The translations under genes and the position numbers were made by a program. The notes under the pieces are model-generated. The model saw only the letters and a program-made list of their open reading frames with translations, was not told the origin of the DNA and did not search any database. A stretch of DNA of 64,000 bases from Mustelus asterias (Eukaryota): NCBI RefSeq assembly GCF_964213995.1, contig NW_027590388.1, forward strand, positions 186,001-250,000, given 5' to 3'. Positions 12,928-63,882 of this stretch are shown here, in pieces (position 1 is the first letter of the stretch; every line of letters starts with the position of its first letter).

Positions 12928-13635
12928 TCAGCCCACTGGAGGCAAAGTCATGAGACCGGCCTCCGACCCTCCCCATTGACCAAGAAACCCTCCGACCCTC
13001 CCCATTGACCAACTGTGAGAATGAACAAAATGCAGTCCTGGATGTAATTGAGAGCAGAATTGGTGTCTCAGCAGGTGGGATGAAACTCTGAATCTCTTCC
13101 CACACACAGAGCAGGTGAATGGCCTCTCCCCAGTGTGAACTCGCTGGTGTGTGCAGAGGTTTGAGAGGTCAGTGAATCCCTTCCCACACTGAGAGCACAT
13201 AAATGGTTTCTCCCCAGTGTGAACTCGCTCGTGTGTCCGCAGACTGGATAACTGAGTGAATCCATTCCCACACTGAGAGCAGGTAAATGGTCTCTCCCCA
13301 GTGTGAACTCGCTGGTGTCTTTGCAGGCCTGATGAATTACTGAATCCCTTCCCACACTGAGAACAAGTGAATGGTCTGTCCCCAGTGTGAACTCGCTGGT
13401 GAGTCCGCAGGTTGGATGACTGAGTGAATCCCTGCCCACACTGAGAACAGGTGAACGGTCTCTCCCCAGTGTGAACTCGCTGGTGTCTTTGCTGGCCGGA
13501 TGAATCACTGAATCCCTCCCCACACTGAGAGCAGGTGAATGGTCTCTCCCCCGTATGGCTGCGCCAATGCGCTTCGAGCTCAGATGGGTATCCGTATCTC
13601 TTCTCACAGTCTGCACATTTCCATGGTTTCTCCAT
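12928..13635 (-). CDS. C2H2 zinc-finger protein (ZNF gene 2), 235 aa, 6 intact fingers plus a broken 7th
   Basis: MEKPWKC start at 13635; ~44-bp deletion removes the last His and the normal stop; may be a pseudogene. Confidence 0.75.
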
Positions 13636-14121
13636 GGCGCAGGTGTCCTTGCCGCTCTCTTGGGTGGACAATTAGTTGAAACTTCGTCCACACACACAAC
13701 ACGGGTACAGTCTCTCCCCGCTGTGAATGGTGTGATATTTATTCAGGCTGTGTAACTGGTTAAAGCTCTTTAGTCAGTGCACTGGAACACTCTCACTCGA
13801 GTGTGGCCGTGTGTTGGCGCTTTTCCAGTCACACTGATGTTTGAAATCTTTTCAAATCAACAGACCGGACAATCATTTCTTCTTCTAGATTCAAAAGCCG
13901 ATGATATTCAGCTCCCAAGGAATAAGACTCTGTCAGATCTAGACGTGACGTTTGAGATTTCAGCCTGTGATTCCTCTTTCAATATCCTGTAAAATGAGTT
14001 TCCAAAAGTCATCAGTGTCAGTACAGGATAGAAATTCAGAACAGACAATTTCTATGGAACATTCTTTCCTCTCTCATTCCCCAGAAGCTGTAAATCTCCA
14101 TCCCACACACTCTCTCCCCAT

Positions 14122-19676: not shown

Positions 19677-20260
19677 GAACTGAATCCAGACAGAGGAGAG
19701 GGAGGGAGAAAACTGGGACTGGAGGAAAGAAATGGTGAGATGGGTTTGGATTTCAGCCCAGGGAGGAGGGAGAGTGTGTGGGACAGGGATTTACAGATTT
19801 TGGGGAACAAGAGAGGAAAAAATGTCCCAGAGAAACTAGAATTGTCTGTTCAGAATTTCTATCCTGGACTGACAGTGATGACTTTTCCAAATTTTTTTTA
19901 CAGGATATTGGAAGTGGAGGATTGGCAGACAGAAAACTCAAACCGAACATCATGACTGGCAAAGTCATTTTGTTCATTCGGAGCTGAATATCATTGGTCT
20001 TTGAATATGGGAGGAGAAATGTTTGACTCTTCTGTCTGTCGGCAAAGATTTTAAACATCAGTGTGACCGGAAAAGCATTGAAACAAACACACGCCCGATT
20101 GAGGGTGTTCCAGTGAACTGACTGTGGAAAGAGCTTTAACCAGTCCACAGCCTGAAAAAACATCACAGTTCACAGCAGGGTGAAACTACGTGTATGTTGT
20201 GTGTGTGGATGAGGCTTGACCTGATCATCCAACCTGGAGATACACAAGGGCACCAGCACC

Positions 20261-21355
20261 ATGGAGAAACCGTGGAAATGTGTGGAGTGCGGGAAGGGAT
20301 TCGGTTTCCCATCACAACTGGAAGTTCATCGGCGCAGTCACACTGGGGAGAGACCGTTCACCTGCTCTGTTTGTGGGAAGGGATTCACCCATTCATACAA
20401 CCTTCTGACTCACCGACGGGTTCACACTGGGGAGAGGCCGTTCACCTGCCCTGTGTGTGGGAAGGGATTCACTCGCTCATCCCACATTGTGACACACCAA
20501 CTTGTTCACACAGATGAGAAACTGTTTACATGTTCTGACTGTGAGAAGAGTTTTAAATGCAAAAAAGATCTGCTGACGCACCAACGTATTCACACTGGGG
20601 AGAGACCATTCACCTGCTCTGTGTGTAGGAAAGGATTCATTCAGTCATCCCACTTGCAGACACATCAACTTGTTCACTCTGATAACAAACTTTTTAATTG
20701 TTCCCACTGTGAGAAGAGCTTTAAAAATAAAAAAGATCTGCTGACGCACCAATATGCTCACACTGGGGAGAGGCCATTCACCTGCTGTGTGTGTGGGAAG
20801 GGATTCAGCCGCCCATCTGCCCTATTGAACCACCAGAGAATTCACACTGGGGAGAGGCCCTTCACCTGCTCAGACTGTGGGAAGGGATTCATTAATTCAT
20901 CTAACCTTCTGATACACCAGCAACTCCACACAGGGGATCGACCGTTCAACTGCTCTGAATGTGGGAAGGGATTCACCCGTTCATACAACCTTCTGACACA
21001 CCAGCAGGTTCACAGTGAGGAGAGGCCATTCACTTGCTCCGTGTGTGGGAAGGGATTCACTCGTTTATCCAACTTATTGAATCACCAGCGAGTTCACACT
21101 GGGGAGAGGCCATTCACCTGCTCTGTATGTGGGAAGGGATTCAGTCAGTCATCCAACCTGCTGACACATCAGAGAGTTCACAGTGGGGAGAGGCCATTTA
21201 CCTGCTCTGTCTGTGGGAAGGGATTTTCTCATTTATCTTATCTTCTGAAACACCAGCGAGTTCACACTGGGGAGAGGCCGTTCACCTGTAATGTCTGTGG
21301 AAAGGGATTTATTCAGTCATCCCACCTGCTAACACACCAGCGAGTTCACAAGTGA
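20261..21355 (+). CDS. C2H2 zinc-finger protein (ZNF gene 3), 364 aa, 13 fingers
   Basis: intact MEKPWKC...HQRVHK* array; acceptor at 19903/19904; AATAAA at 21457. Confidence 0.92.
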
Positions 21356-26730: not shown

Positions 26731-27087
26731 AGAGGGCAATGTTGTCAATCAGTGGGAGGGGCTTGTTCCCCAGTGTTCAGAATGGAGACAACTTGTCCAT
26801 CAAACTGCATCAACCCTGAGTCCCAATGTCTTATTGATGAGGCAGAGCGGTAGCAGAGAAGGAAAAAGAAAGGAAAATAAAAACAGTAAATGCTGGAAAA
26901 TCTCAGCAGATCTGACAGCATCTGTGGAGAGAGAATACAACCAACGTTTTGAGACTGGATGACCCATAGACAGAGCTTGTACACGTGTAAACAGAGCATG
27001 TAAACTTTGACACCTCCACGTACCCTTGTACACCTCTATCAATCTACTTTGCTCCAAGGAGAACAACCCCAAGTTATCCAGCCTAAC

Positions 27088-30000
27088 TGATGCGCGTCAA
27101 TGAGCACATGGAATCAAGGCTTTAGTATTGAAGGCTTTAATACAGTAACAATGAAACTACTAACACGAATACACCAGTTCAGACTGAAGGGGTCCTGCCG
27201 GAGCAGGGGGTCTTATACCCTGCCACCGGAGGCGGGACCCCACTGGAATGTGCCATGGTAACACTTATAACAGGTAAACACCCTAACCCAACAACATAGT
27301 ACAACCCCCACAGTAATAACACCCTAGCCCAACAGTAACATGGTAACAAACCCCAGTGGTGAACCAACGATGGTTCACCACATTCACCCCTCCTTTAAGA
27401 CAAAAGGTGGCGGGGTGGACGAAAACAGACAATAACAAAAAAAAATCACAGGATTCACAAGTCCAGACGGTCTGGAGGACCGCACCGACGCTGCGATCTC
27501 CTCAACACCGGTTGCGAAACCGGATCAGGTGCTTGTAGTGGTTCTCTCCAAGTAACGTGTGGCTGTCCCTTCAAGGACTCCCGGGCCGGCCGGCCCTGGT
27601 GAGGCGATGGTGCAGGGGATCCTGGAACGTTTGGTGGTAGTGGTGGTGGTGGTGATGATGGTGGCGCCGATCTCCGAGTCTCAGGCAAGCTGTACATGGG
27701 AGTAAAAGTGTTATGCACTGGTCCCGGTGCTGACCGCGCCACGTCTGGGGAAGTAATGAGGAGTAGTGGATTTGTGACTGGGGGAATAGGAGCGACAGGG
27801 GTTGCTACGTCCCCTGCGGGCGCCAGGTCTCTAATGGAGACAGTGTCCTCTCGCCCGTCAGGATATGCCACATAGGCATACTGAGGGTTGGCGTGGAGGA
27901 GTTGGACCGGTTCGACCAAGGGGTCGGACTTGCGAGCCCTCACATGGCGCCGCAGAAGGACGGGTCCTGGGTACGTCAACCAGGCTGGCAATGAGGTCCC
28001 CGAGGACGACTTCCGAGGGAATGAGAACATCCTCTCGTGGGGAGTAGCATTGGTTGCCGTACACAGGAGGGAGCGGATAGAATGGAGCGCATTTGGAAGG
28101 ACCTCCTGCCAACGGGAGACTGGAAGGCCCCTGGATTTCAATGCCAGTAGGACAGCCTTCCAGACTGTAGCATTCTCCCTTTCCACCTGTCCGTTACCCC
28201 TAGGGTTGTAGCTCGTGGTTCTACTAGAGGCAATCCCGAATGAGAGCAGGAATTGCCTCAAGTCGTTGCTCATGAACGACGAGCCCCTGTCGCTATGAAT
28301 ATAGCAGGGGTACCCGAACAGGGTAAAAAGTTCACTGAAAACCTTGATGACGGTGGCAGTTGACGTGTCCGCACAGGGGAAAACAAACGGAAACCGGGAA
28401 TATTCGTCTATTATATTGAGAAAATAGACATTCCGGTCCGTTGAGGGAAGGGGGCCCTTAAAATCCACACTCAGCCTCTCAAAAGGGCGAGTGGCCTTGA
28501 CCAAATGTGCCCGGTCTGGTCGATAAAAGTGTGGTTTGCATTCTGCGCAAATCCGACAGCTTCTAGTTACTGACCTGACCTCCTCCACCGAGTAGGGCAG
28601 GTTGCGGGCTTTGATGAAGTGGTAGAGTCTGGTGACTCCAGGATGACACAGATCATTGTGGAGAGCCTTCAAGCGGTCCTCCTGCATGATGGCGCATGTT
28701 CCGCGCGAGAGGGCATCCGAGGGCTCATTGAGCTTCCCTGGACGATACATAATATCGTAATTATAGGTGGAGAGCTCAATTCTCCACCGCAAGATCTTAT
28801 CGTTCTTGATCTTGCCCCTCTGCGTGTTATTGAACATAAACGCCACGGATCGTTGATCCGTGATCAGGGTGAACCGCTTACCTGCCAGGTAATGGCGCCA
28901 GTGTCTGACTGCCTCCACAATGGCCTGAGCCTCCTTTTCCACCGCTGAGTGCCGAATCTCTGGGCCTTGAAGGGTGCGGGAAAAAAACGCGACGGGCCTG
29001 CCTGCCTGGTTTAGTGTGGCGGCTAGGGCGAAGTCAGATGCATCACTCTCCACCTGGAAAGGGATGGATTCATCCACCGCGTGCATCGTGGCTTTCGAGA
29101 TGTCACTTTTCAAAACCTTGAAGGCCAATTGGGCCTCCGGCGTAAGTGGGAAGGTCGTGGACTTAATGAGCGGACGAGCTTTGTCCGCGTAGTTGGGGAC
29201 CCACTGTGCATAATACGAAAAGAACCCGAGGCATCTCCTCAGTGCTTTCGTGCTAGCGGGCAAGGGAAGTTCAGTGAGTGGGCGCATACGGTCTGGATCA
29301 GGGCCAATGACCCCGTTTTCCACCACGTATCCGAGGATGGCTAACTTACGCGTACGGAATACGCACTTCTCCCTGTTATAGGTCAGATTCAGGCGAGATG
29401 CAGCGCGCAGAAAGTGTTGGAGATTCGTGTCGTGGTCCTGCTGGTCATGGCCGCAGATGGTGACGTTATCCAGGTACGGGAAGGTAGCCCGCAACCCATT
29501 CTGGTCCACCATTCGGTCCATAGCACGCTGGAAGACCGAGACCCCATTGGTGACACCAAATGGAACCCTGAGGAATTGGTATAGACGACCATCCGCCTCA
29601 AAGGCCGTATATTGTCGGTCCTCTGGGCGGATGGGGAGTTGATGGTAGGCGGACTTAAGGTCTATGGTAGAAAACACTCGGTACTGCGCAATCTGATTGA
29701 CCATATCAGAAATGCGCGGGAGAGGATACGCATCCAGCTGCGTGTATCTATTAATGGTCTGACTATAGTCGATGACCATCCGAGGTTTGTTCCCGCTTTT
29801 GACTACCACGACCTGCGCTCTCCACGGACTAGCACTGGCCTGTATGATCCCTTCCTTGAGGAGCCGCTGAACCTCAGATCTAATAAAGATCCGGTCCTCA
29901 GCGCTGTAACGCCTACTTTTAGTAGCGATGGGCTTGCAGCCAGGTACCAGATTTTTAAAAAGGGATGGTGTCGTGATCTTCAGGATGGATAGATTGCACG

Positions 30001-31768
30001 CGGGGCGCTTTGGGCAATTTGGAGGCTGCGGCTGGTTCCCTACTGCCAGTGAAGGGAGTGGCCCACCGTACTGTAGGATCACACTCTTCATGTGGACCAT
30101 AAAGTTTAGTCCGAGGATAATTGGCGCGCAAAGGTGAGGTAGCACAAGGAGCCTGAATTGCTCGTAAACTGTGCCCTGTACCTCAAGAGTTACCATACAT
30201 CGTCCTTGGATCGGTACAGACCGGGACTGTGATGCCATGGAAATTGTCTGTTTGGCAGGGAGAATCCGGAGTCCACACCTTTTAGCAGTTTCAGGGTGTA
30301 TGAAACTTTCGGTGCTCCCACTGTCAAACAGACAATTCACAGTTCTGCCACTAACCTTTACCTCCATCATAGAATGTTCCAGTCTGTAATGCCTGGTCTG
30401 GTCCAGAGAGATCGACGCCACCGTTGGCCCCTGGGCGTCACTGCATGCTGCCGATGTGGATGCTGAGGACCCCTGCTGGTCGCTCCTAGTCGTCGTGGAC
30501 CATGATGGCCGCCCCCATGAATCGCACGTGGGCGAGGGCGCCAAGCGCAGCGACTCCTGGTGGTCTTCCTCCTCCTCTGTTTGCCACGATGGCGCCGTCC
30601 TGAGATCGCACGTGGTCGGACCTCGTGGGTACTGCAACGCCGAAAGAGATGGTCTCCGTTCTGGAGGGTTACAAACTGCACTGCCGTTTTTAGGTCTGGA
30701 CCTACAGACTTTGCCGTAGTGGCCTTTTTTACCGCACTGGCTGCAGATTGCCGTTCTTGCCGGACACTGTTTCCGTGGATGCTTGGCCCCACCGCAAAAA
30801 TAGCATCGCTGGCCACCTGGAGCTGCCGCCGTCGTCGAATCGATCTGGGAGCGCGGGTTCGCGGGGCGAGGAGGGAGCAGAGCTTGCTCCAACCACGTTG
30901 ACTGCACGTGGTCCTCGGGGTACAGCGCCAAGCTCTTCGACGCCGCCTCCAACCTCGCGGCCATCCCCATTGCCTGGGTCAAGTTGAGTTTCCCCTTTTC
31001 TAGTAATTTAAGCCTGATGTACGAGGACCCTACCCCTGCTACGAACGCGTCTCGGGCGAGGTCGTACATGTACTGCTCGGCGGAGACGTCCTTACAGTCG
31101 CAACCCCTGGCAAGCTGCAGGAGCTCATTGGCATAATCCTCTATGGTTTCGCCTGACTGCCGACGTCGTGTAGCGAGGAGGTAACGAGCATGTATCTCGT
31201 TGGGTGGCGTAATGTACCTATTCTTTAGGAGCTCGACGGCACCCTGGTAAGTGGGAGCTGCACGAATGGCTAGGTAAATCGTGTCGCTTACCCTCGCGTG
31301 GAGGACCTGGAGTCTATCACTGTCCGTAGTGATAGCTACCGAGGCTGCCAGGTAGTCCTCAAAGCACTTCCACCAATGGTCGAATGTGTTAGCTGCACCG
31401 ACCGCACGTGGGTCCAGTGTCAGACGATCCGGTTTTAGAATCTGTTCCATACTCTCTGTTTACTGTATTAAATTGATGCGCGTCAATGAGCACATGGAAT
31501 CAAGGCTTTAGTATTGAAGGCTTTAATACAGTAACAATGAAACTACTAACACGAATACACCAGTTCAGACTGAAGGGGTCCTGCCGGAGCAGGGGGTCTT
31601 ATACCCTGCCACCGGAGGCGGGACCCCACTGGAATGTGCCATGGTAACACTTATAACAGGTAAACACCCTAACCCAACAACATAGTACAACCCCCACAGT
31701 AATAACACCCTAGCCCAACAGTAACATGGTAACAAACCCCAGTGGTGAACCAACGATGGTTCACCACA
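27088..31768 (-). mobile_element. intact Ty3/Gypsy LTR retrotransposon (4681 bp), inserted in an old CR1 fragment
   Basis: 295-bp LTRs 27088-27382 and 31474-31768, TG...CA, no difference seen by eye; 5-bp TSD ctaac; PPT at 27383-27396. Confidence 0.97.
27455..31450 (-). CDS. single-ORF Gag-Pol polyprotein, 1331 aa
   Basis: two CCHC knuckles, protease LFDSGS, RT (LRVPFG, YLDN), RNase H (SDAS, TDQ), integrase (HHCC, DFKG/SDRG/NGQVER); PR-RT-RH-IN order. Confidence 0.96.
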   Translation of the reverse strand: MEQILKPDRLTLDPRAVGAANTFDHWWKCFEDYLAASVAITTDSDRLQVLHARVSDTIYLAIRAAPTYQGAVELLKNRYITPPNEIHARYLLATRRRQSGETIEDYANELLQLARGCDCKDVSAEQYMYDLARDAFVAGVGSSYIRLKLLEKGKLNLTQAMGMAARLEAASKSLALYPEDHVQSTWLEQALLPPRPANPRSQIDSTTAAAPGGQRCYFCGGAKHPRKQCPARTAICSQCGKKGHYGKVCRSRPKNGSAVCNPPERRPSLSALQYPRGPTTCDLRTAPSWQTEEEEDHQESLRLAPSPTCDSWGRPSWSTTTRSDQQGSSASTSAACSDAQGPTVASISLDQTRHYRLEHSMMEVKVSGRTVNCLFDSGSTESFIHPETAKRCGLRILPAKQTISMASQSRSVPIQGRCMVTLEVQGTVYEQFRLLVLPHLCAPIILGLNFMVHMKSVILQYGGPLPSLAVGNQPQPPNCPKRPACNLSILKITTPSLFKNLVPGCKPIATKSRRYSAEDRIFIRSEVQRLLKEGIIQASASPWRAQVVVVKSGNKPRMVIDYSQTINRYTQLDAYPLPRISDMVNQIAQYRVFSTIDLKSAYHQLPIRPEDRQYTAFEADGRLYQFLRVPFGVTNGVSVFQRAMDRMVDQNGLRATFPYLDNVTICGHDQQDHDTNLQHFLRAASRLNLTYNREKCVFRTRKLAILGYVVENGVIGPDPDRMRPLTELPLPASTKALRRCLGFFSYYAQWVPNYADKARPLIKSTTFPLTPEAQLAFKVLKSDISKATMHAVDESIPFQVESDASDFALAATLNQAGRPVAFFSRTLQGPEIRHSAVEKEAQAIVEAVRHWRHYLAGKRFTLITDQRSVAFMFNNTQRGKIKNDKILRWRIELSTYNYDIMYRPGKLNEPSDALSRGTCAIMQEDRLKALHNDLCHPGVTRLYHFIKARNLPYSVEEVRSVTRSCRICAECKPHFYRPDRAHLVKATRPFERLSVDFKGPLPSTDRNVYFLNIIDEYSRFPFVFPCADTSTATVIKVFSELFTLFGYPCYIHSDRGSSFMSNDLRQFLLSFGIASSRTTSYNPRGNGQVERENATVWKAVLLALKSRGLPVSRWQEVLPNALHSIRSLLCTATNATPHERMFSFPRKSSSGTSLPAWLTYPGPVLLRRHVRARKSDPLVEPVQLLHANPQYAYVAYPDGREDTVSIRDLAPAGDVATPVAPIPPVTNPLLLITSPDVARSAPGPVHNTFTPMYSLPETRRSAPPSSPPPPLPPNVPGSPAPSPHQGRPARESLKGQPHVTWREPLQAPDPVSQPVLRRSQRRCGPPDRLDL

Positions 31769-32089
31769 CTAACATTGTAACTATAATTCCTCATCCCTGA
31801 AACCATTTTGATAAATCTCCTCTGCACCCTGTCAAGGAGCCTCACATCCCCCATAATGTGTGTGGTGATCACTGGTTTGCACAGACCCAGGTATTCTGTG
31901 TTCCTGTCTGTGATCTCATTACATACTTAAAATTGCACAGTGACATCACCCCCGCTCCCCGGGGATTTCCTCAACTGGGAGATTTTTCTCTGATGCCAAT
32001 GCTTCTGATATCTTTCCAGCTGCAGGCTCCAGCAGGAGATTTTAATATTAAAATCAGTTAAATTGTTTCAGAGGTGAGTGTTTGTGACC

Positions 32090-33768
32090 ATTCACGGGCA
32101 CGAGTTCTCGTCATAAACCAGTTGCTCGCCTCCATGCTGTGGTACCGGCTGGTCCCTTTGACCCCTCCCCCTGGCTTTGTTGCCAGTACAGTAAGAAGTC
32201 TCACAACACCAGGTTAAAGTCCAACAGGTTTATTTGGTAGCATGTTGCCAATATCCAGAGAACCCTCCTGCGGTTCTTCTGGGACAATCGACTGCACTGG
32301 GTCCCTGCCGTGGTTCTGCATCTACCGCTTGAGGAGGGCGAACAAGGTCTGGTGTGCCTCCGCATTCAGATAGCGACCTTCCGCCTCCAGGCCCTGCAGA
32401 GGTACCTTTACGTTGAGCCCCCTCCACAGTGGTGTGCCATGGCGACGTATTTCTTCCGCCAGTGGCACGGCCTGAGTTATGACTTGCAGCCCCTGCATAT
32501 CGAACTGGGGCGTGCTTCGACCACCCTGCAGGAGTTGCCCGTCTTTTACCAGGACCTCCTCACTGTCTGGAACAAGGTCGCCTCGCGACGCAGCTCTCCC
32601 CCGTCAGGAGTAGCGGCTCTCGTGCGAGAGCCGCTGCTCAGGAATCCGCTCCTCCAGCCGTATGACTTCAGGTGGCTGGCGGAGAGGGGGGCTGTGGACG
32701 CCGGGGTGACCAGAATCGGGGACGTGCTCGATGGCGGAGGAGCGGGCTGGATGAGTCCCCGCGTGCTGGCTGAGCGCGTTGGGACATCCGTCTGGCGCGC
32801 GGCCAAAGCCATCCTAGACCTTAGGACGGTCGTGCTCGGCCCCGAAACTGCACGCAAACTCGAGACGGCGCAGGCGTGCGGTGGGATCCCGCCCGAGCGT
32901 TCCCCTGTTCGGGCGGAATTCCACATTGGCCCAAAGCCTCAGCCCCCTCCCCTGGGTGAGGTGCCCCACAGCCTGAGCCGCCTCACGGAAATGTCCTCCG
33001 TGCCTTTTTCTACCGCGCGGAGGTGTTTCCTGTGCGGGCTGCTGCTGCACACCTTCCACTACCGCGTCCTCACCTGTCGCCCGGATACACCTTGGCGGGC
33101 CTTGTTGCCGCCGGGCGGCGGAGGTCCCTCTACGGAGGGATCTCCCCCAATTACGTCGGGGACCTGGGGTGGAGAGTGATGCATGCAGCAGTGCCGCACA
33201 ACCGTAGGATTCACTGGTTCACGGGCTCCGAAGACTGCCCTTTCTGTGGCCTTGTGGAGTCCGTGGACCATGTCTTTCTTTTGTGTCTTAGGTTGCACTC
33301 CCTTTTTGTTTTCCGAAAGAACCGTTTATTAATGTTTTGCTTGCACTTCAGTCCCACGCTCCTGATCTACGGACACCCGGTGCGGAGAGGGGAGGGTCGG
33401 GATGGCGACCTCCTCGTGAACCTGCTCCTGGCGAAACGCGCCATTTACCGGTCCAGGCAGCGGGCGATCGAGGGGGCCGTCCATCCTGACTGTCTTCCCC
33501 TCTACCGCGGCTACGTTCGCGGCCAGCTGTCCCTGGAGAGGGAGCATGCGGTGTCCATGGGCGCGGTTGACGCCTTCCGCGCCCGCTGGGCACCGCAGGG
33601 GTTGGGGTGCATTACTGACCCTAATAACCACATTTTAATTTGATGTTTTTAAGTTTCCTTTGTACTTTGATTTCTGTTCGGGCTGTTCCCCCTCCTTTTG
33701 GGGAGCTGCCCCTTTTACTTTGTCCTGATTTAACTTGAGTTTGTTTCTTTGGTTTGACCTAAAAAGAG
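32090..33768 (+). mobile_element. Tx1-like (L1 clade) LINE 3' fragment, frameshifted
   Basis: LVINQLLASMLWYRL, LHLPLEEGEQGL, zf-RVT CPFC...ESVDHVFLLC; T-rich 3' UTR ending aaaaagag. Confidence 0.85.
32189..32242 (-). mobile_element. 54-bp Penelope terminal fragment nested in Tx1
   Basis: 11-bp TSD tgttgccaRta (1 mismatch). Confidence 0.85.
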
Positions 33769-34766: not shown

Positions 34767-35132
34767 ATGAAAAAAGAATTTTCCATAGAAACTAAAATAG
34801 TCTGTTCTGAATTTCTCTCCTGCACCGACAATGATGACTTTTGTAAATTCCTTTTACAGGATATCAGAGGGTGAGGATTTACAGATAGAAATCTCAAACT
34901 TCTCCTGAAGATCACCTGAAGATCTGACAGTCACTCAATTCACTGGGACATGTATATAATCGACCTTTGAATCCAAAAGTAGAAAACTTCTCTGTTCTGT
35001 CTGCTTCAGAAGATTTTAAACATCAGTGTGACCAGAAAAGCACCGAGACACACTCACACCGGAGTGAGAGTGTTCCAGTGCACTGAGTGTGGAAAGAGCT
35101 TTAACCAGGAGAGTCACAAGGACACCCGCACC

Positions 35133-36395
35133 ATGGAGAAACCATGGAAATGTGGGGACTGTGGGAAGGGATTCAGGTTTCCATCTGAGCTGGAAACTCA
35201 TCAACGCAGTCACACTGGGGAGAAACCATTCACCTGTTCTGTGTGTGGGAAGGGATTCACTCAGTTACCCGGTCTGCTGAGTCACAATCTCACTCACACC
35301 AGTGAGAGACCCTTTAAATGCTCTGACTGTGGGAGTGACTTCAAAAGCTCACAGGATCTGATGTCCCACCAGCGCATTCACACTGAGGAGAGACCGTTCA
35401 GCTGCTCTCACTGCACAAAGAGATTTAAATGGTCATCCAGCCTGCGGAGACACCAGCGAGTTCACACTGGGGAGAAGCCGTTCACCTGCTCTGACTGTGG
35501 GAAAGGATTCACTCAGTTATCTGACCTGTGGACACATCAACGGGTTCACACTGGGGAGAGGCCGTACACTTGCTCTGACTGTGGGAAAGGATTCACTCAC
35601 TCAACCATTCTGCGGAGACACCAGCGAGTTCACACCGGGGAGAAACCGTTCACCTGCTGTGTGTGTGGGAAGGGATTCACTACTTCATCCAACCTGCTGA
35701 CACACAAAGTCACTCACAGCAATGAGAGACCCTTTAAATGTTCTGACTGTGGAAGTGGCTTCAAAAGTGCTGCAGATCTGATGATTCACCAGCGCATTCA
35801 CACTGAGGAGAGACCCTTCAGCTGCTCTCACTGCACAAAGAGATTTAAATGGTCATCCACCCTGAGGACACACCAGCGGGTTCACACTGGGGAGAAGCCA
35901 ATCACCTGCTCTGTGTGTGAGAAGAGATTCACTCAGTTATCTGACCTGCGGATACACCAGCGAGTTCACACTGGAGAGAGGCCGTACAACTGCTCTGTGT
36001 GTGGGAAGGGATTCACTCAGTTATCCAACCTGCAGAGACACCAGCGAGGTCACACTGGAGAGAGGCCATTCACTTGCTCTGACTGTGGGAAAAGATTCAC
36101 TCACTCAACCATTCTGCTGACACACCAGCGAGTTCACACCAGGGAGAGACTGTTCACCTGCTCTGACTGTGGGAAAGGATTCACTCAGTTATGCAGCCTG
36201 AAGAGACACCAGCGAATTCACACTGGGGAGAGGCCGTTCATCTGCACTGTGTGTGACAAGGGATTCAGACATTCAAATGCCCTGAAGAGACACCAGCGAA
36301 TTCACACTGGGGAGAGACCCTTCACCTGCCCTCAGTGTGGGAAGGGATTCAGTACATCATCCAGCCTGCGGAGACACCAGCGAGTTCACAAGTGA
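35133..36395 (+). CDS. C2H2 zinc-finger protein (ZNF gene 4), 420 aa, 15 fingers
   Basis: MEKPWKC start at 35133; intact array ending HQRVHK*. Confidence 0.92.
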
Positions 36396-50681: not shown

Positions 50682-51860
50682 TCACTCGTGAACTTGTTGG
50701 TGTCTCAGCAGGTGGGATGAAACTCTGAATCCCTTCCCACATACAGAGCAGGTGAATGGTCTCTCGCCAGTGTGAACTCGCTGGTGTATCCGCAGGTCAG
50801 ATGACTGAGTGAATCCCTTCCCACACTGAGGGCAGGTGAATGGCCTCTCCCCAGTGTGAACTCGCTGGTGTGTCCGCAGGTGGGTTGACCGAGTGAATCC
50901 CTTCCCACACTGAGAGCAGGTGAACGGCCTCTCCCCTGTGTGAACTCGCTGGTGTGTCAGCAGATCAGATGAGTTTGTGAATCCCTTCCCACACTGAGAG
51001 CAGATGAATGGTTTCTCCGCAGTGTGAACTTGCTGGTGTGTCTGCAGGTGGGTTGACCGAGTGAATCCCTCCCCACACTGAGAGCAGGTGAACGGCCTCT
51101 CTCCTGAGTGAACTCGCTGGTGTGTCCGCAGGTCAGATGACTGAGTGAATCCCTTCCCACACTGAGAGCAGGTGAATGGTTTCTCCCCAGTGTGAACTCG
51201 CTGGTGTATCCGCAGGTGGGATGACTGAGTGAATCCCTTCCCACACTGAGAGCAGGTGAATGGCCTCTCCCCTGTGTGACGTAGCTGGTGTCTCTGCAGG
51301 TCGGCTAACTGAGTGAATTCTTGCCCACACTGAGAGCAGGTGAACGGTCTCTCTCCAGTGTGAACTCGTTCGTGTGTCCGCAGGTTGGATGACTGAGTGA
51401 ATCCCTTCCCACACTGAAAACAGGTGAATGGCCTCTCCCCAGTGTGAACTCGCTGGTGTCTCTGCAGGTGGGATGACCGAGTGAATCTCTTCCCACACTG
51501 AGAGCAGGTGAATGGCCTCTCCCCAGTGTGAACTCGCTGGTGTCTCTGCAGGTGGAATGACCGAGTGAATCCCTTCCCACACTGAGAGCAGGTGAACGGC
51601 CTCTCTCCAGTGTGAACTTGCTGGTGTGTCTGCAGGCTGGATAACTGTATGAATCCCTTCCCACACTGCGAGCAGGTGAATGGCCTCTCCTCAGTGTGAA
51701 CGCGCTGGTGTGACTGCAGGTGGGATAACTGATTAAATCCCTCCCGACAGTGAGAGCAGATGAATGGTCTCTCCCCAGTGTGGCTGCGCCGATGAGTTTC
51801 CAGCTCTGATGGGGCTCTGTATCCCTTCCCACAGTCTGCACATTTCCATGGTTTCTCCAT
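50682..51860 (-). CDS. C2H2 zinc-finger protein (ZNF gene 5), 392 aa, 14 fingers
   Basis: MEKPWKC start at 51860; intact array ending HQQVHE*; closest to genes 1 and 2. Confidence 0.92.
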
Positions 51861-52529
51861 GGTGCAGGTGTCCTTACCTGTCTCTTGAGTGGACAATTAG
51901 TTGAAACTTCGTCCACACACAGAACAAGATTACAGTCTCGACCCGCTGTGAATGTTGTGATATTTATTCAGGCTGTGTAACTGGTTAAAGCTCTTTAGTC
52001 CATGCACTAGAACACTCTCACTCGAGTGTGGCAGTGTGTTGATGCTTTTTCACTCACACTGACATTTCAAATCCTTTCAAATCGACAGACTGGACAATCA
52101 TTTCTCCTTCTGGATTCAAAGTCCGATGATATTGAGGTCCCAAGGAATATGACTCTGTCACGTCTCGACGTGACGTTTGAGATTTCAGCCTGTGATTCCT
52201 CTTTCAATATCCTGGAAAATGAGTTTCCAAAAGTCATCAGTGTCAGTACAGGATAGAAATTCAGAACAGACAATTTCTATGGAACATTCTTTCCTCTCTC
52301 ATTCCCCAAAAGCTGTAAATCTCCATCCCACACACTCTCTCCCCATTCTCAGCAGGTCTGGCAGCATCTGCATGGAGAGAAAAGAACTGATGTTTCAGAG
52401 CTTTGACAAAGGGTCATCTAGACAAGAAACATCAGCTCTTTTCTCTCCTTACAGATGCTGCCAGACCTACTGAGATTTTCCAGCATTTTCTCTCTTGGTT
52501 TCAGATTCCAGCATCCGCAGTAATTTGCT

Positions 52530-54440: not shown

Positions 54441-55032
54441 AGAACTGAACCCAGACAGAGGAGAGGGAGGGAGAAAACTGGGAGTGGAGGGAAGAAATGG
54501 TGGAGATGTTGAGATGGGTTTGGATTTCAGCCCAGGGAGGGGGGAGAGTGTGTGGGACGGGGATTTATCGATTTGGGGGAACAAGAGAGGAAAATATGTT
54601 CCAGAGAAATTTCAGAATTTCTATCCTGCACTGACAGTGATGGTATTTGTAAACTGTTTTTGCAGGGTATTATGAAGCAAGATTTACAGATATGAAACTC
54701 AAACCAAACTTCACATCAAGATCTGTTTCAGTGATTTGATTAATCAGAAACTGAATATAATCAGCCTTTGTCTACAGAAGGAGAAATGTTTATTCTGTCT
54801 GCGGGCAAAGATTTCAAACATCAGTGTGACTGAAAAAGCACATTGACACACACACACCTGAGAGTTTCCAATGTGCTGAATGTGGAAAGTGGTTTAACAA
54901 GTCTGAAAAACAATCACATCATTGTCAGTGAGTAGTGACCCGACGCATATTCTGTGTAAACGAGGCTTCAACTCATCATCCAACCTGGAGTCACACGAGG
55001 ACACCGGCAGCTCAGAGAAACCATTGAAATGT

Positions 55033-56238
55033 ATGGACTGTGGGAGGGGCTTCAATTACCCGTCCGAATTGGATATTCATCGTCGCATTCACACTGGAGA
55101 GAGGCCGTTCACCTGCTCTGAGTGTGGGAAAGGATTTGCTTACTCATCCAGCCTCTATACACACCGGCGTGTTCACACTGGAGAGAGGCCATTCACCTGC
55201 CTCGAATGTGGGAGGGGATGTCATGCTTTATCAAGCCTCCTGATTCACCGGCAGGTTCACTCCGATCAGAGACTGTTTCAGTGTTCTGATTGTGAGAAAA
55301 GCTTTAAAAGCACAAAGGACCTCCTGAGACACCAGCGCACTCACATGGCGGTGAGACCGTTCACCTGCTCAGTGTGTGGGAAGGGATTCACTCAGTCATC
55401 CCACCTTCTGACACACCAACTTGTTCACACTGATCAGAGACCATTTCAATGTTCTGACTGTGAGAAGAGATTTAAAAGTAAATATGATTTACAAGTCCAT
55501 CAGCGCACTCACACTGGGGAGAAGCCATTCACCTGCTCCGTGTGTGAGAGGAGATTCGGACGTTTATCCCAGCTGCAAACACACCAGCGAGTTCACTCTG
55601 ATAAGAGACCATTTCAGTGTTCTGACTGTGAGAAGAGCTTTAAAAGTAAACAGGATTTGGTGACACACCAGCGAGTTCACACTGGGGAGAAACCGTTCAC
55701 CTGCTCGGTGTGTGGGATGGGATTCACCCATTCATCCCACTGTCTGAGACACCAGCGAGTTCACACCGGGGAGAAACCATTCATTTGCTGTGTGTGTGGG
55801 AAGGGATTCACTGATTCACCTCACCTCCTGATACACGAGCGGATTCACACTGGGGAGAAACCCTTCACTTGCTCCACATGTGGGAAACGATTCACTCAGC
55901 CACCCCAGCTCATTGCACATCAACTAGTCCACACTGATCAGAGACCTTTTAAGTGTTCTGACTGTGAGAAAAGCTTTAAAAGCTCTAAGGACCTGCTGAG
56001 ACACCAGCAAATTCACACTGGAGAGAGATCATTCACCTGCTCCATGTGTGGGAAAAGGTTCACTCAGTCATCCCACCTGCTGAGACACCAGCAGGTTCAC
56101 ACAGGAGAGAGATCGTTCACCTGCTCCGTATGTGGGAAGAGATTTGCTTGGTCAGCCAATCTACTGAGACACCAGCAAGTTCACAAGTCACTGCAGGGGT
56201 TGGATTCTGCTGTTGCTGCTCACCCCATGCAGGACTGA
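55033..56238 (+). CDS. C2H2 zinc-finger protein (ZNF gene 6), 14 finger repeats, start uncertain
   Basis: frame open from 54922; family ATG replaced (SEKPLKC); first ATG at 55033 lies inside finger 1; ancestral stop read through. Confidence 0.75.
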   Translation: MDCGRGFNYPSELDIHRRIHTGERPFTCSECGKGFAYSSSLYTHRRVHTGERPFTCLECGRGCHALSSLLIHRQVHSDQRLFQCSDCEKSFKSTKDLLRHQRTHMAVRPFTCSVCGKGFTQSSHLLTHQLVHTDQRPFQCSDCEKRFKSKYDLQVHQRTHTGEKPFTCSVCERRFGRLSQLQTHQRVHSDKRPFQCSDCEKSFKSKQDLVTHQRVHTGEKPFTCSVCGMGFTHSSHCLRHQRVHTGEKPFICCVCGKGFTDSPHLLIHERIHTGEKPFTCSTCGKRFTQPPQLIAHQLVHTDQRPFKCSDCEKSFKSSKDLLRHQQIHTGERSFTCSMCGKRFTQSSHLLRHQQVHTGERSFTCSVCGKRFAWSANLLRHQQVHKSLQGLDSAVAAHPMQD

Positions 56239-62164: not shown

Positions 62165-63379
62165 TCAGCAGGTGGGATGACTGAGTGAATCCCTTTGTGA
62201 ATCCTTGTGAACTCGCTGGTGTGTCAGCAGGTGGGATGACTGCATGAATCCCTTTCCACACTCAGAGCAGATAAACGGCCTCTCTCCGGTGTGAACTTGC
62301 TGGTGACTCTGCAGATAAGATGAAAGAGCGAATCCTTTCCCACACTCAGAGCAGGTGAATGGTCTCTCCCTGGTGTGAACACGTCGGTGTGCCTGCAGGT
62401 TAGCTGAACGAGTGAATCCCTTCCCACACTCAGAGCAGGTGAACGGCCTCTCCCCGGTGTGAACTTGCTGGTGATTCTGCAGGTCGGATAACTGAATGAA
62501 TCCCCTGCCACACTCGGAACAGGTGAATGGCCTCTCCCTGGTGTGAACCTCCTGGTGTGACACTAGGTGGGATGATTGAATAAAACGCCTCCCACACTCG
62601 GAGCAGACGAATGGCCTCTCCCTGCTGTGAACTCCCTGGTGTGACATTAGGTGTGACGATTGGATAAAACGTTTCCCACATTCGGGGCAGCTGAATGGCC
62701 TCTCCCTTGTGTGGGTTCCTTGGTGTGTCACTAGGTGTGATAACTGAATAAAACGCTTCCCACACTCGGAGCAGGGGAACGGCCTCTCCCTCCTGTGGAC
62801 TCCCTGGTGAGTCACTAGGTGTGATAACTGAATAAAACACTTCCTGCACTCAGAGCAGTTGAAAGGCCTCTCCTTAGTGTGGGCTCGCTGGTGTATCTGC
62901 AGGTGAGATGACTGAGTGAAACCCTTTCCACAGTCGGAGCAGGTGAATGGTCGCTTTCCGGTGTGGATTTGTTGGTGATTCAAAAGTTCAGATGAATGAT
63001 TGAATTGCTTCCCACACTCAGAGCAGTTGAACGGTTTTTCCCCAGTGTGAACTTGCTGGTGTGTCAGCAGGTGGGATAACTGAGTGAATCCCTTCCCACA
63101 ATCAGAGCAGGTGTACAGCCTCTCCCTACTGTGAACTGCTTGGTGATTCCACAGGTCGGCTGCCTGGAGAAAACCCTTCCCACACTCGGAGCAGATGAAG
63201 GGCCTCTCCCCAGTGTGGCTGCATTGATGAATCTTCAGGGCAGATGGGGAGCAGTCTCCTTCCCCACACTTGGAGCAGGGGAACAGTCTCTCCCCAGTGT
63301 GAATATGTTGATGAGTTTGCAGTGCAGACGGGATACGGAATTCCTTACCACAATCCTCATCTTTCCCCGGTTTCTCCAT
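62165..63379 (-). CDS. C2H2 zinc-finger protein (ZNF gene 7), 404 aa, 13 intact fingers
   Basis: MEKP start at 63379; first finger degenerate (GKDEDC); ancestral last finger lost by frameshift. Confidence 0.88.
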
Positions 63380-63882
63380 GGTGTGGATGTCCTTGTGTCT
63401 TTCCAGGTTTAACAATCAGTTAAATCCTCATCCATTCATAGAGCATGTGTACTGTCTGTCCCCGCTGTAAATGATGTGATATTTTTGCAGTCTGTGTAAC
63501 TGGTCTTTTGACAGTCAGTGTACTGGACACTCTCACTCAGCTCTGTGTTCCTTGGTGCCTTTCCAGTCACACTGATGTGACAGAAAAAACAGATAAATAT
63601 TTCTTCTTCTCGATTCAAAGTCTGATGATATTCAGGTTCTGATAATTTGAGTGACTCTATTAAGCCTTAACATGTTTTGAGATTGCTGGCAGCAAATCTT
63701 CCCCTTATAACTTCCTGTAAAATGAGTTTACAAAAGTCATCACTGTCAGTATCAAACAGAAATTCAGAATAGACAATTCTAGTTTCTGTGGAACATTTCT
63801 TCCTTTCTCGTTCCTCTGGATCTGTACATCTCCATCCCACACCCTATCCCTGTATCCTCACTCTGCTGTCTGTATAATACAC

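Follow-up and report, generated by a model that had tools for sequence, protein, structure and literature searches.

In retrotransposons with long terminal repeats (LTRs), the primer of reverse transcription requires a free 3' end, the right-hand LTR boundary is set by the primer site, and a new primer site is made when the primer is copied during plus-strand strong-stop synthesis. Self-priming, in which the element's own RNA replaces the tRNA, has been regarded as characteristic of the Tf1/sushi chromoviruses, with the plant TAR elements of the Copia group as a predicted second case, and has so far been demonstrated in yeast. Passages of PMC7175516 give the primer of Tf1 as the first 11 nt of its RNA, Tf1/sushi RNAs are described in part of bioRxiv 2022.12.06.519325 as forming a three-duplex pretzel, and passages of PMC5341516 report that just one of the alternative start sites of Tf2 yields a primer-bearing RNA. 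For TAR elements, self-priming is predicted in passages of PMC6317226 from at least 10 bp of LTR complementarity lying 0-5 bp past the LTR, passages that hold no link between TAR or Tcn1 self-priming and a poly(A) signal; passages of PMC6317226 and PMC10886601 describe Copia lineages that lack TGG and are primed by half-tRNAs. In the passages searched, with subscription papers, Repbase reports and GyDB pages outside the scope, descriptions of self-priming are confined to Tf1/sushi, Tcn1, and the TAR elements of plants. Here, we analyze a 64,000-nt stretch of the shark Mustelus asterias (assembly GCF_964213995.1, contig NW_027590388.1, positions 186,001 to 250,000 of the forward strand; hereafter the window, to which all positions refer), which carries on its minus strand a Ty3/Gypsy retrotransposon whose primer site is complementary to its own LTR. 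We propose that minus-strand synthesis in this element is probably primed by its own RNA, through an internal primer inside the R region, instead of by a tRNA.

A primer site complementary to its own LTR

An earlier note on this stretch, made from the letters alone, had described an element with no TGG or other tRNA-type site after its 5' LTR, an ATG only 23 nt beyond the LTR, and, one base from the LTR edge, 13 nt that pair exactly with an LTR segment including ATTAAA; our reading of the window bears out all of these points. On the sense strand, the 5' LTR terminates in ...GCGCATCA at 31474 and is followed by a single A, by TTTAATACAGTAA, by ACAGAGAGT, and by the ATG at 31450. The LTR partner, at 31534-31522, reads TTACTGTATTAAA, the exact reverse complement of TTTAATACAGTAA, and terminates in ATTAAA.

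31460..31472, minus strand: primer-binding site TTTAATACAGTAA, complementary to the LTR partner
31473, minus strand: single base separating the primer site from the LTR-terminal CA; a spacer of the same length precedes TGG in Mag-type elements
31522..31534, minus strand: partner segment, candidate 3' end of the self-primer, predicted RNA nt 38-50, with ATTAAA at 31527-31522
31518..31521, minus strand: GCCT adjoining the helix; the predicted cut lies between 31522 and 31521

The chance occurrence of such a 13-mer in a 295-nt LTR of the same composition is about 5e-6, and the longest inverted repeat of the region measures 13 bp, compared with at most 8 bp in 40 dinucleotide shuffles. The helix is present in both the minimum-energy and the centroid folds of the predicted leader. 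The fold of the 3' LTR was uninformative, the folded stretch having included host flank, and an Rfam search returned two below-cut-off matches, which we judged to be chance.

The element is intact and spans 27088-31768 (4681 bp), with two LTRs of the form TG...CA, a target-site duplication (TSD), and a polypurine tract. Its LTR ends are set independently by the second LTR, the TSD GTTAG, and an empty-site joint (27082-31769, with 5 shared bases) that is found in contigs, of unspecified kind, from all four of four runs, which both fixes the two ends of the element and marks the insertion as polymorphic.

31474..31768, minus strand: 5' LTR, TG...CA, 295 bp, 100% identical to the 3' LTR (295/295 by blastn)
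27088..27382, minus strand: 3' LTR, 295 bp, with a copy of the partner and its ATTAAA at 27148-27136 and no primer site downstream
27383..27396, minus strand: polypurine tract
31769..31773, minus strand: TSD GTTAG, upstream copy
27083..27087, minus strand: TSD GTTAG, downstream copy
27455..31450, minus strand: single open frame of 1331 aa with Gag, two zinc knuckles, protease (PR), reverse transcriptase (RT, YLDN), RNase H (RH), and integrase (IN)

The window protein has the domain order gag-PR-RT-RH-IN without env, and its top match in the PDB is Ty3 Gag-Pol (E 1.2e-62). No chromodomain was matched in it by Pfam, in line with the earlier note. The nearest named proteins come from rays and catsharks. 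Of the best 40 matches to the 241-bp junction, 30 share the top score at 100% identity, and the exact 22-mer made of the LTR end and the primer site occurs at 105 places in the shark's own genome. The window element is a young, intact, non-chromodomain Ty3/Gypsy retrotransposon.

Conservation of the complementarity among relatives

Relatives were gathered with a 12-protein alignment, which led to 80 metagenome loci and 8 contigs from prokaryote bins, and with a distant Gag query, which led to further families of the own genome. Own-genome and metagenome contigs supplied the DNA in which the signature was read, the named proteins contributing protein sequence only, and 68 loci (37 of the 80 from metagenomes, 31 from the own genome) had a gag start and sufficient upstream DNA. 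An unanchored test scored the longest mismatch-free inverted repeat within the 170 nt that precede gag. Repeats of at least 11 bp (11-18) were present in 54 of these 68 loci (31/37 metagenome, 23/31 own genome) and repeats of at least 13 bp in 48, compared with at most 8 bp in same-length gag controls and shuffle means of 6.3-7.0; all 40 shuffles were exceeded in each of the nine loci tested. Gag identity to the window element falls as low as 30% among these relatives. No related locus was found in viral contigs.

A paired-LTR test, in which both LTRs set the LTR ends, was given 30 elements and dropped one for an unclear end. The arm begins one base past the terminal CA, and the 13-mer matches the element's own 3' LTR at 13/13 positions in 20 of the 29 elements, at 12/13 in eight, and at 10/13 in one; against LTRs of other groups it reaches at most 11/13 in all 492 pairs, and 11/13 in a single one. 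Three extra loci from the prokaryote-bin contigs, one of them with YLDD, match at 13/13. Different families carry different primer-site sequences, each with its own LTR complement, and combine at least 10 bp of LTR-adjacent complementarity, 0-5 bp past the 5' LTR, with the lack of a TGG, the pattern from which passages of PMC6317226 predict self-priming.

The pairs themselves were compared in 26 helices, obtained from 31 hand-picked loci anchored on the repeat after removal of four without an anchor and one duplicate; this set is partly circular and uncorrected for relatedness, the paired-LTR test being the cleaner of the two. All 26 helices open with AAA/TTT, whereas positions 4-13 vary, several of them showing three or four pair types; the helix is directly followed by GCCT or ACCT in 20 of the 26 families, and the loop between the arms ranges from 24 to 66 nt (49 nt in the window). 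Watson-Crick pairs fill 267 of 273 cells in 21 helices and G-U pairs two. Compensatory change among relatives was the check that the earlier note had asked for, and complementarity is indeed kept through matched changes; neither of the two outcomes that the note had named as refutations turned up, the tRNA comparison covering the small set given below. On the sequences compared, a self-complementary primer site is a clade-wide trait.

The site occupied by this arm is that of a tRNA primer. Elements of the same genome that we take, from their motifs, to be Mag-type (L220, L221, L226; L numbers denote individual loci) carry CA-G-TGGC at the equivalent place, so the self-complementary arm occupies the tRNA primer-site position. 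Another Gypsy family of this genome has CA-TTTT-TGGAGG at its LTR end.

Three side observations belong with this survey. Eight prokaryote genome bins (L211-L218) contain pieces of this animal retrotransposon clade and are contaminated; in L048 the LTR end and primer site stand in tandem duplicate, about 75 nt and 10 nt before gag; and an abundant YLDD Gypsy family (L141-L157, e.g., G000:C16:88134000-88143999) has four T before a TGGAGG primer site.

Natural alleles within the window family

In the window family, 105 copies have C at primer-site position 8 and 372 have A or G; T was absent among the 100 matches listed, and no copy combined C at position 8 with a change at position 9. The two arms vary together: 104 of 111 copies are exact complements of their own 5' LTR (44 with A-T, 40 with G-C, 20 with C-G) in LTRs that otherwise differ by few bases, and each switch at position 8 is a transversion on both arms, without a wobble step between. 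The seven mismatched copies comprise three with changes in the 5' LTR only (L316, L311, L282), one shortened copy, and three whose primer site is unlike both LTRs. In a linkage test, the primer site follows the LTR in L346 and L248, the leader in L340, and neither in L256 and L284; these counts are compatible with copying of the primer, are too few to say more, and L346 and L248 could be ancestral types. In L256 and L284 (G000:C1:120964670 and C2:154533106), an allele of another subfamily sits in the primer site between markers of their own subfamily and both LTRs keep their own allele; it would have arisen through a point change or through priming in trans.

Promoter motifs, poly(A) signal, and the proposed priming route

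Two promoter-like motifs lie upstream of the partner.

31598..31603, minus strand: TATA box TATAAG; among LTRs of the own genome (G000), TATA lies at -78 to -87 from the partner 3' end in 18 of 19
31569..31574, minus strand: initiator-like (Inr) TTCAGT, with the predicted +1 at 31571

From a partner about 70 nt downstream of TATAAG (the box starts at 31603, 69 nt ahead of it), the earlier note had suggested a mode of self-priming unlike that of Tf1. The TATA and Inr motifs of the shark families sustain that suggestion by placing the primer inside R; the start site it depends on is read from those motifs. In 17 of 19 own-genome shark LTRs, YYYAGT occurs with its A 32-33 nt past the TATA, and in 17 of 19 the partner would span nucleotides between 33-45 and 43-55 of the predicted RNA (38-50 in the window). 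The partner ends in AATAAA in 13, in ATTAAA in seven, and in another NNTAAA-like word in six of the 26 families. Within the window family ATTAAA is the sole conserved hexamer, a downstream ACTAAA reading ACCGAA in sister subfamilies. An internal primer overlapping the poly(A) signal is a probable difference from Tf1, judging by these motifs.

We propose the following route. Transcription would start near 31571, and nucleotides 38-50 of the RNA would fold onto the primer site over the 49-nt loop. The RNA would be cut after ...UAAA and before GCCU, probably by the element's RNase H by analogy with Tf1, and the freed piece of about 50 nt, its last 13 nt paired, would prime the minus strand, the 5' copy of the partner being the one used. 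Strong-stop DNA would copy from the primer site to the cut only and then jump to the RNA 3' end. With the poly(A) signal placed at the cut, that end would be expected 10-30 nt beyond the cut point, leaving a short overlap for strand transfer. During plus-strand synthesis the primer would itself be copied, renewing the primer site, so that both arms would change together and remain almost purely Watson-Crick. The scarcity of G-U pairs and the paired switches are what such copying predicts and would be hard to obtain from selection on an RNA hairpin alone. As a by-product, the pairing would also conceal the 5' poly(A) signal; such masking is plausible, and six of 26 families lack AATAAA/ATTAAA at the partner end. 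A small RCCT...AGGY hairpin right after the predicted cut, seen in 10 of 27 elements, none from the own genome (L031, L032, L033, L036, L040, L043, L047, L055, L072, L082; closing pair A-U, G-C, or G-U), may shape the cut site.

Several observations weigh against this proposal. Transcript start, poly(A) site, and cut are predictions, not RNA observations, and the TATA-to-Inr spacing of 32-33 nt is slightly long. No TATA was found upstream of the partner in 10 non-shark LTRs, so the internal primer is supported for the shark families only, and outside them transcription may start at the partner as in Tf1. The allele switches of the window family amount to two or three events, not 104 independent ones, and in L256, L284, and L340 the primer-site allele differs from both of the copy's own LTRs. 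Among the 14 loci with repeats below 11 bp, 13 show by eye the same arms broken by mismatches, and in L092 no partner was seen by eye. The folding energy of the whole leader is no better than that of shuffles (z -1.08).

Alternative explanations

Taken across the three readings in which the element primes itself, self-priming is very likely. In the first of the two that differ from our proposal, the geometry would be that of Tf1: the RNA would start at or just before the partner, its first 13-18 nt would be the primer, and the TATA and Inr would serve another transcript or go unused. This is the mechanism that has been demonstrated (passages of PMC7175516 and bioRxiv 2022.12.06.519325), it would fit the alternative starts of Tf2, only one of them primer-bearing (passages of PMC5341516), and it is favored by the lack of an upstream TATA in the non-shark LTRs; a further TATA-like word, about 33 nt ahead of the partner end in some shark LTRs, would start an RNA near the end of the partner and not its beginning. 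We nevertheless consider it unlikely, since the TATA-Inr spacing is fixed at 32-33 nt in 17 of 19 shark LTRs despite differing intervening sequence, and the second duplex of the pretzel, from the primer-site flank to the LTR, is not conserved. Pairing of the primer-site 3' flank with the loop gave a mean z of 0.08, with one of 29 below -2, and -10.9 kcal/mol for cognate vs -11.2 kcal/mol for non-cognate combinations, in a test that covered one of the pretzel's two extra duplexes. A candidate for this duplex in the window copy (11/12 pairing by eye) was set aside, as it is not conserved even in sister subfamilies.

Alternatively, the primer could come from the 3' copy of R, the RNA 3' end being cut or trimmed to ...UAAA and looping to the primer site, in cis or between packaged RNAs. 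The poly(A) hexamer (AATAAA/ATTAAA in 20 of 26 families) forms the very end of the helix, near the natural 3' end, the LTR copies are identical, so that sequence cannot separate the 5' from the 3' copy, and the foreign allele of L256 and L284 could arise by priming in trans. The 5' copy lies, however, only 24-68 nt from the site and would pair first, a cut at the 3' end would remove the first-strand-transfer overlap unless a second RNA were used, and no precedent was found; we regard this route as improbable, somewhat more so than the Tf1 geometry.

It is less probable again that the helix is only a hairpin that masks the poly(A) signal and stops early termination in the 5' LTR, with some other RNA as primer. 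In HIV-1 a hairpin is known to mask the 5' poly(A) signal, and here the hexamer lies within the helix and the 3' LTR lacks a downstream partner. Masking alone would leave unexplained why the helix starts one base from the LTR end, at the place of TGG in tRNA-primed elements, and why G-U pairs are nearly absent (2/273); moreover, six of 26 families have no AATAAA/ATTAAA at the partner, L033 has a separate AATAAA further downstream, and a primer from outside would need to follow the changes of every subfamily.

A comparison with host tRNAs, also advised by the earlier note, gave no match, the primer site reaching at best 6-7 contiguous bases at the 3' end and 9-10 of 13 ungapped among 19 distinct genes for Lys, Thr, Tyr, Pro, and Val only. 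Priming by a host tRNA or half-tRNA, with the LTR match incidental, would be helped by the small size of that set and by the half-tRNA priming without TGG in Copia lineages (passages of PMC6317226 and PMC10886601), but is the most improbable of all, given that within one family three or more alleles, and within one genome about 10 different sites, each follow their own LTR and that a site changing between subfamilies in step with the LTR cannot be explained by a tRNA primer. Priming by the element's own RNA from inside the 5' copy of R remains the explanation that we prefer.

The insertion and its surroundings

The 5' junction of the element recurs in identical form on the same contig, at 82644. 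The LTR opens with a 10-bp perfect hairpin (GTGGTGAACC...GGTTCACCAC) at 31742-31767 and 27356-27381, which is looser in related shark LTRs. The insertion is surrounded by a cluster of C2H2 zinc-finger genes, with open frames of 84-nt repeats, in a host genome of 3.68 Gb, and a non-LTR retrotransposon remnant (32241-33643, plus strand) with a weak zf-RVT match lies just upstream of the element.

1083-2437, 12928-13742, 20225-21355, 34983-36395, 50682-51896, 54907-56238, and 62165-63415: zinc-finger open frames with 84-nt repeats

Placement of the clade and comparison with known systems

In a quick maximum-likelihood tree of RT-RNase H with 41 rows, none of them a chromovirus or Cigr-1 sequence, the window element falls in a clade of 32 rows (SH-aLRT 100, stem 1.78) together with own-genome families, metagenome loci, and proteins from Hypanus, Mobula, Narcine, Scyliorhinus, Styela, Actinostola, Apostichopus, and Trichinella, separate from four Mag-type rows and from BEL-type and other Gypsy rows. 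Profile searches of the own genome with Chromo, DUF4939, and SH3_Tf2-1 yielded no usable chromovirus element, and a chromodomain is absent from all 11 clade proteins examined (the window protein and 10 others). Some chromoviruses have lost their chromodomain; as far as domain content shows, placement of the element outside the chromodomain-bearing group is supported. The RT active site is YLDN or YMDN in most rows of the clade and YLDD in L062, L082, L214, P0128, and P0120, which are scattered over the tree; given a window family that is young and abundant, the Asn form is evidently functional.

The clade is probably the Cigr clade (RepeatMasker LTR/Gypsy-Cigr), judging by the general features of its founder, Cigr-1. 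Cigr-1 of Ciona intestinalis is about 4.2 kb long, with short LTRs, one frame of about 1200 codons, a sea-urchin-like Gag, and a distinct RT. The elements described here resemble it in size, single frame, and Gag type, and their clade includes a tunicate protein, from Styela; Cigr is also reported from molluscs and annelids, in passages that make no mention of how its elements prime. Similarity to the Mag lineage (A/B/C clades, SURL) is limited to a weak one in Gag (25-28%) and a double zinc knuckle in common, whereas the RT-RNase H of the window clade stands on a separate long branch and Mag-type copies have the TGG that the window element lacks.

Extending the proposal from the element to its clade, we suggest tentatively, with slightly more doubt than confidence, that self-priming evolved apart from Tf1/sushi in a Ty3/Gypsy clade that reaches from cnidarians, through nematodes, echinoderms, and tunicates, to sharks and rays, and that one helix does three jobs there. 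As part of the same joint and equally tentative reading, the helix would conceal the 5' poly(A) signal, mark the internal AAA|RCC cut by which a capped primer of about 50 nt is released, and be rewritten in each cycle, as the primer is copied into the primer site, its arms evolving as one. If so, a widespread chromodomain-free animal clade would represent a further origin of self-priming with a different layout, the primer lying inside R and on the poly(A) signal; its elements would lie beyond any control exerted through the supply of host tRNAs or through tRNA fragments, and would be missed or mislabeled by annotation pipelines in which a tRNA site is mandatory. The window family, young and with natural compensatory alleles, belongs to this clade.

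Among described systems that lack a tRNA-type site, fungal GalEa, with its Conserved Hairpin Site, forms the hairpin entirely from sequence past the LTR and has no LTR complement, and Dictyostelium Skipper, with its polypyrimidine site, has none either, as far as the passages on them describe. The plant TAR elements of Ty1/Copia (Houba, Osr-1) and the Tcn1 chromoviruses follow, in the passages that treat them, the same rule of complementarity as the window clade, but belong to another superfamily or to the chromovirus branch and have plant hosts. Closest are Tf1 and Tf2 of Schizosaccharomyces pombe, Tj1, Tosmo1-3, Tcry1, and Tf1/sushi, which also lack a tRNA site, also have an LTR-adjacent site that complements their own LTR, and also have the Ty3/Gypsy domain order. 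Whereas Tf1, in the passages describing it, uses an 11-nt primer at the RNA 5' end and needs the pretzel, the window clade has a 13-18-bp helix that in the shark families would start 33-43 nt into the predicted RNA, ends on the poly(A) hexamer at a fixed AAA|RCC edge, and comes without a conserved second flank duplex or a chromodomain.

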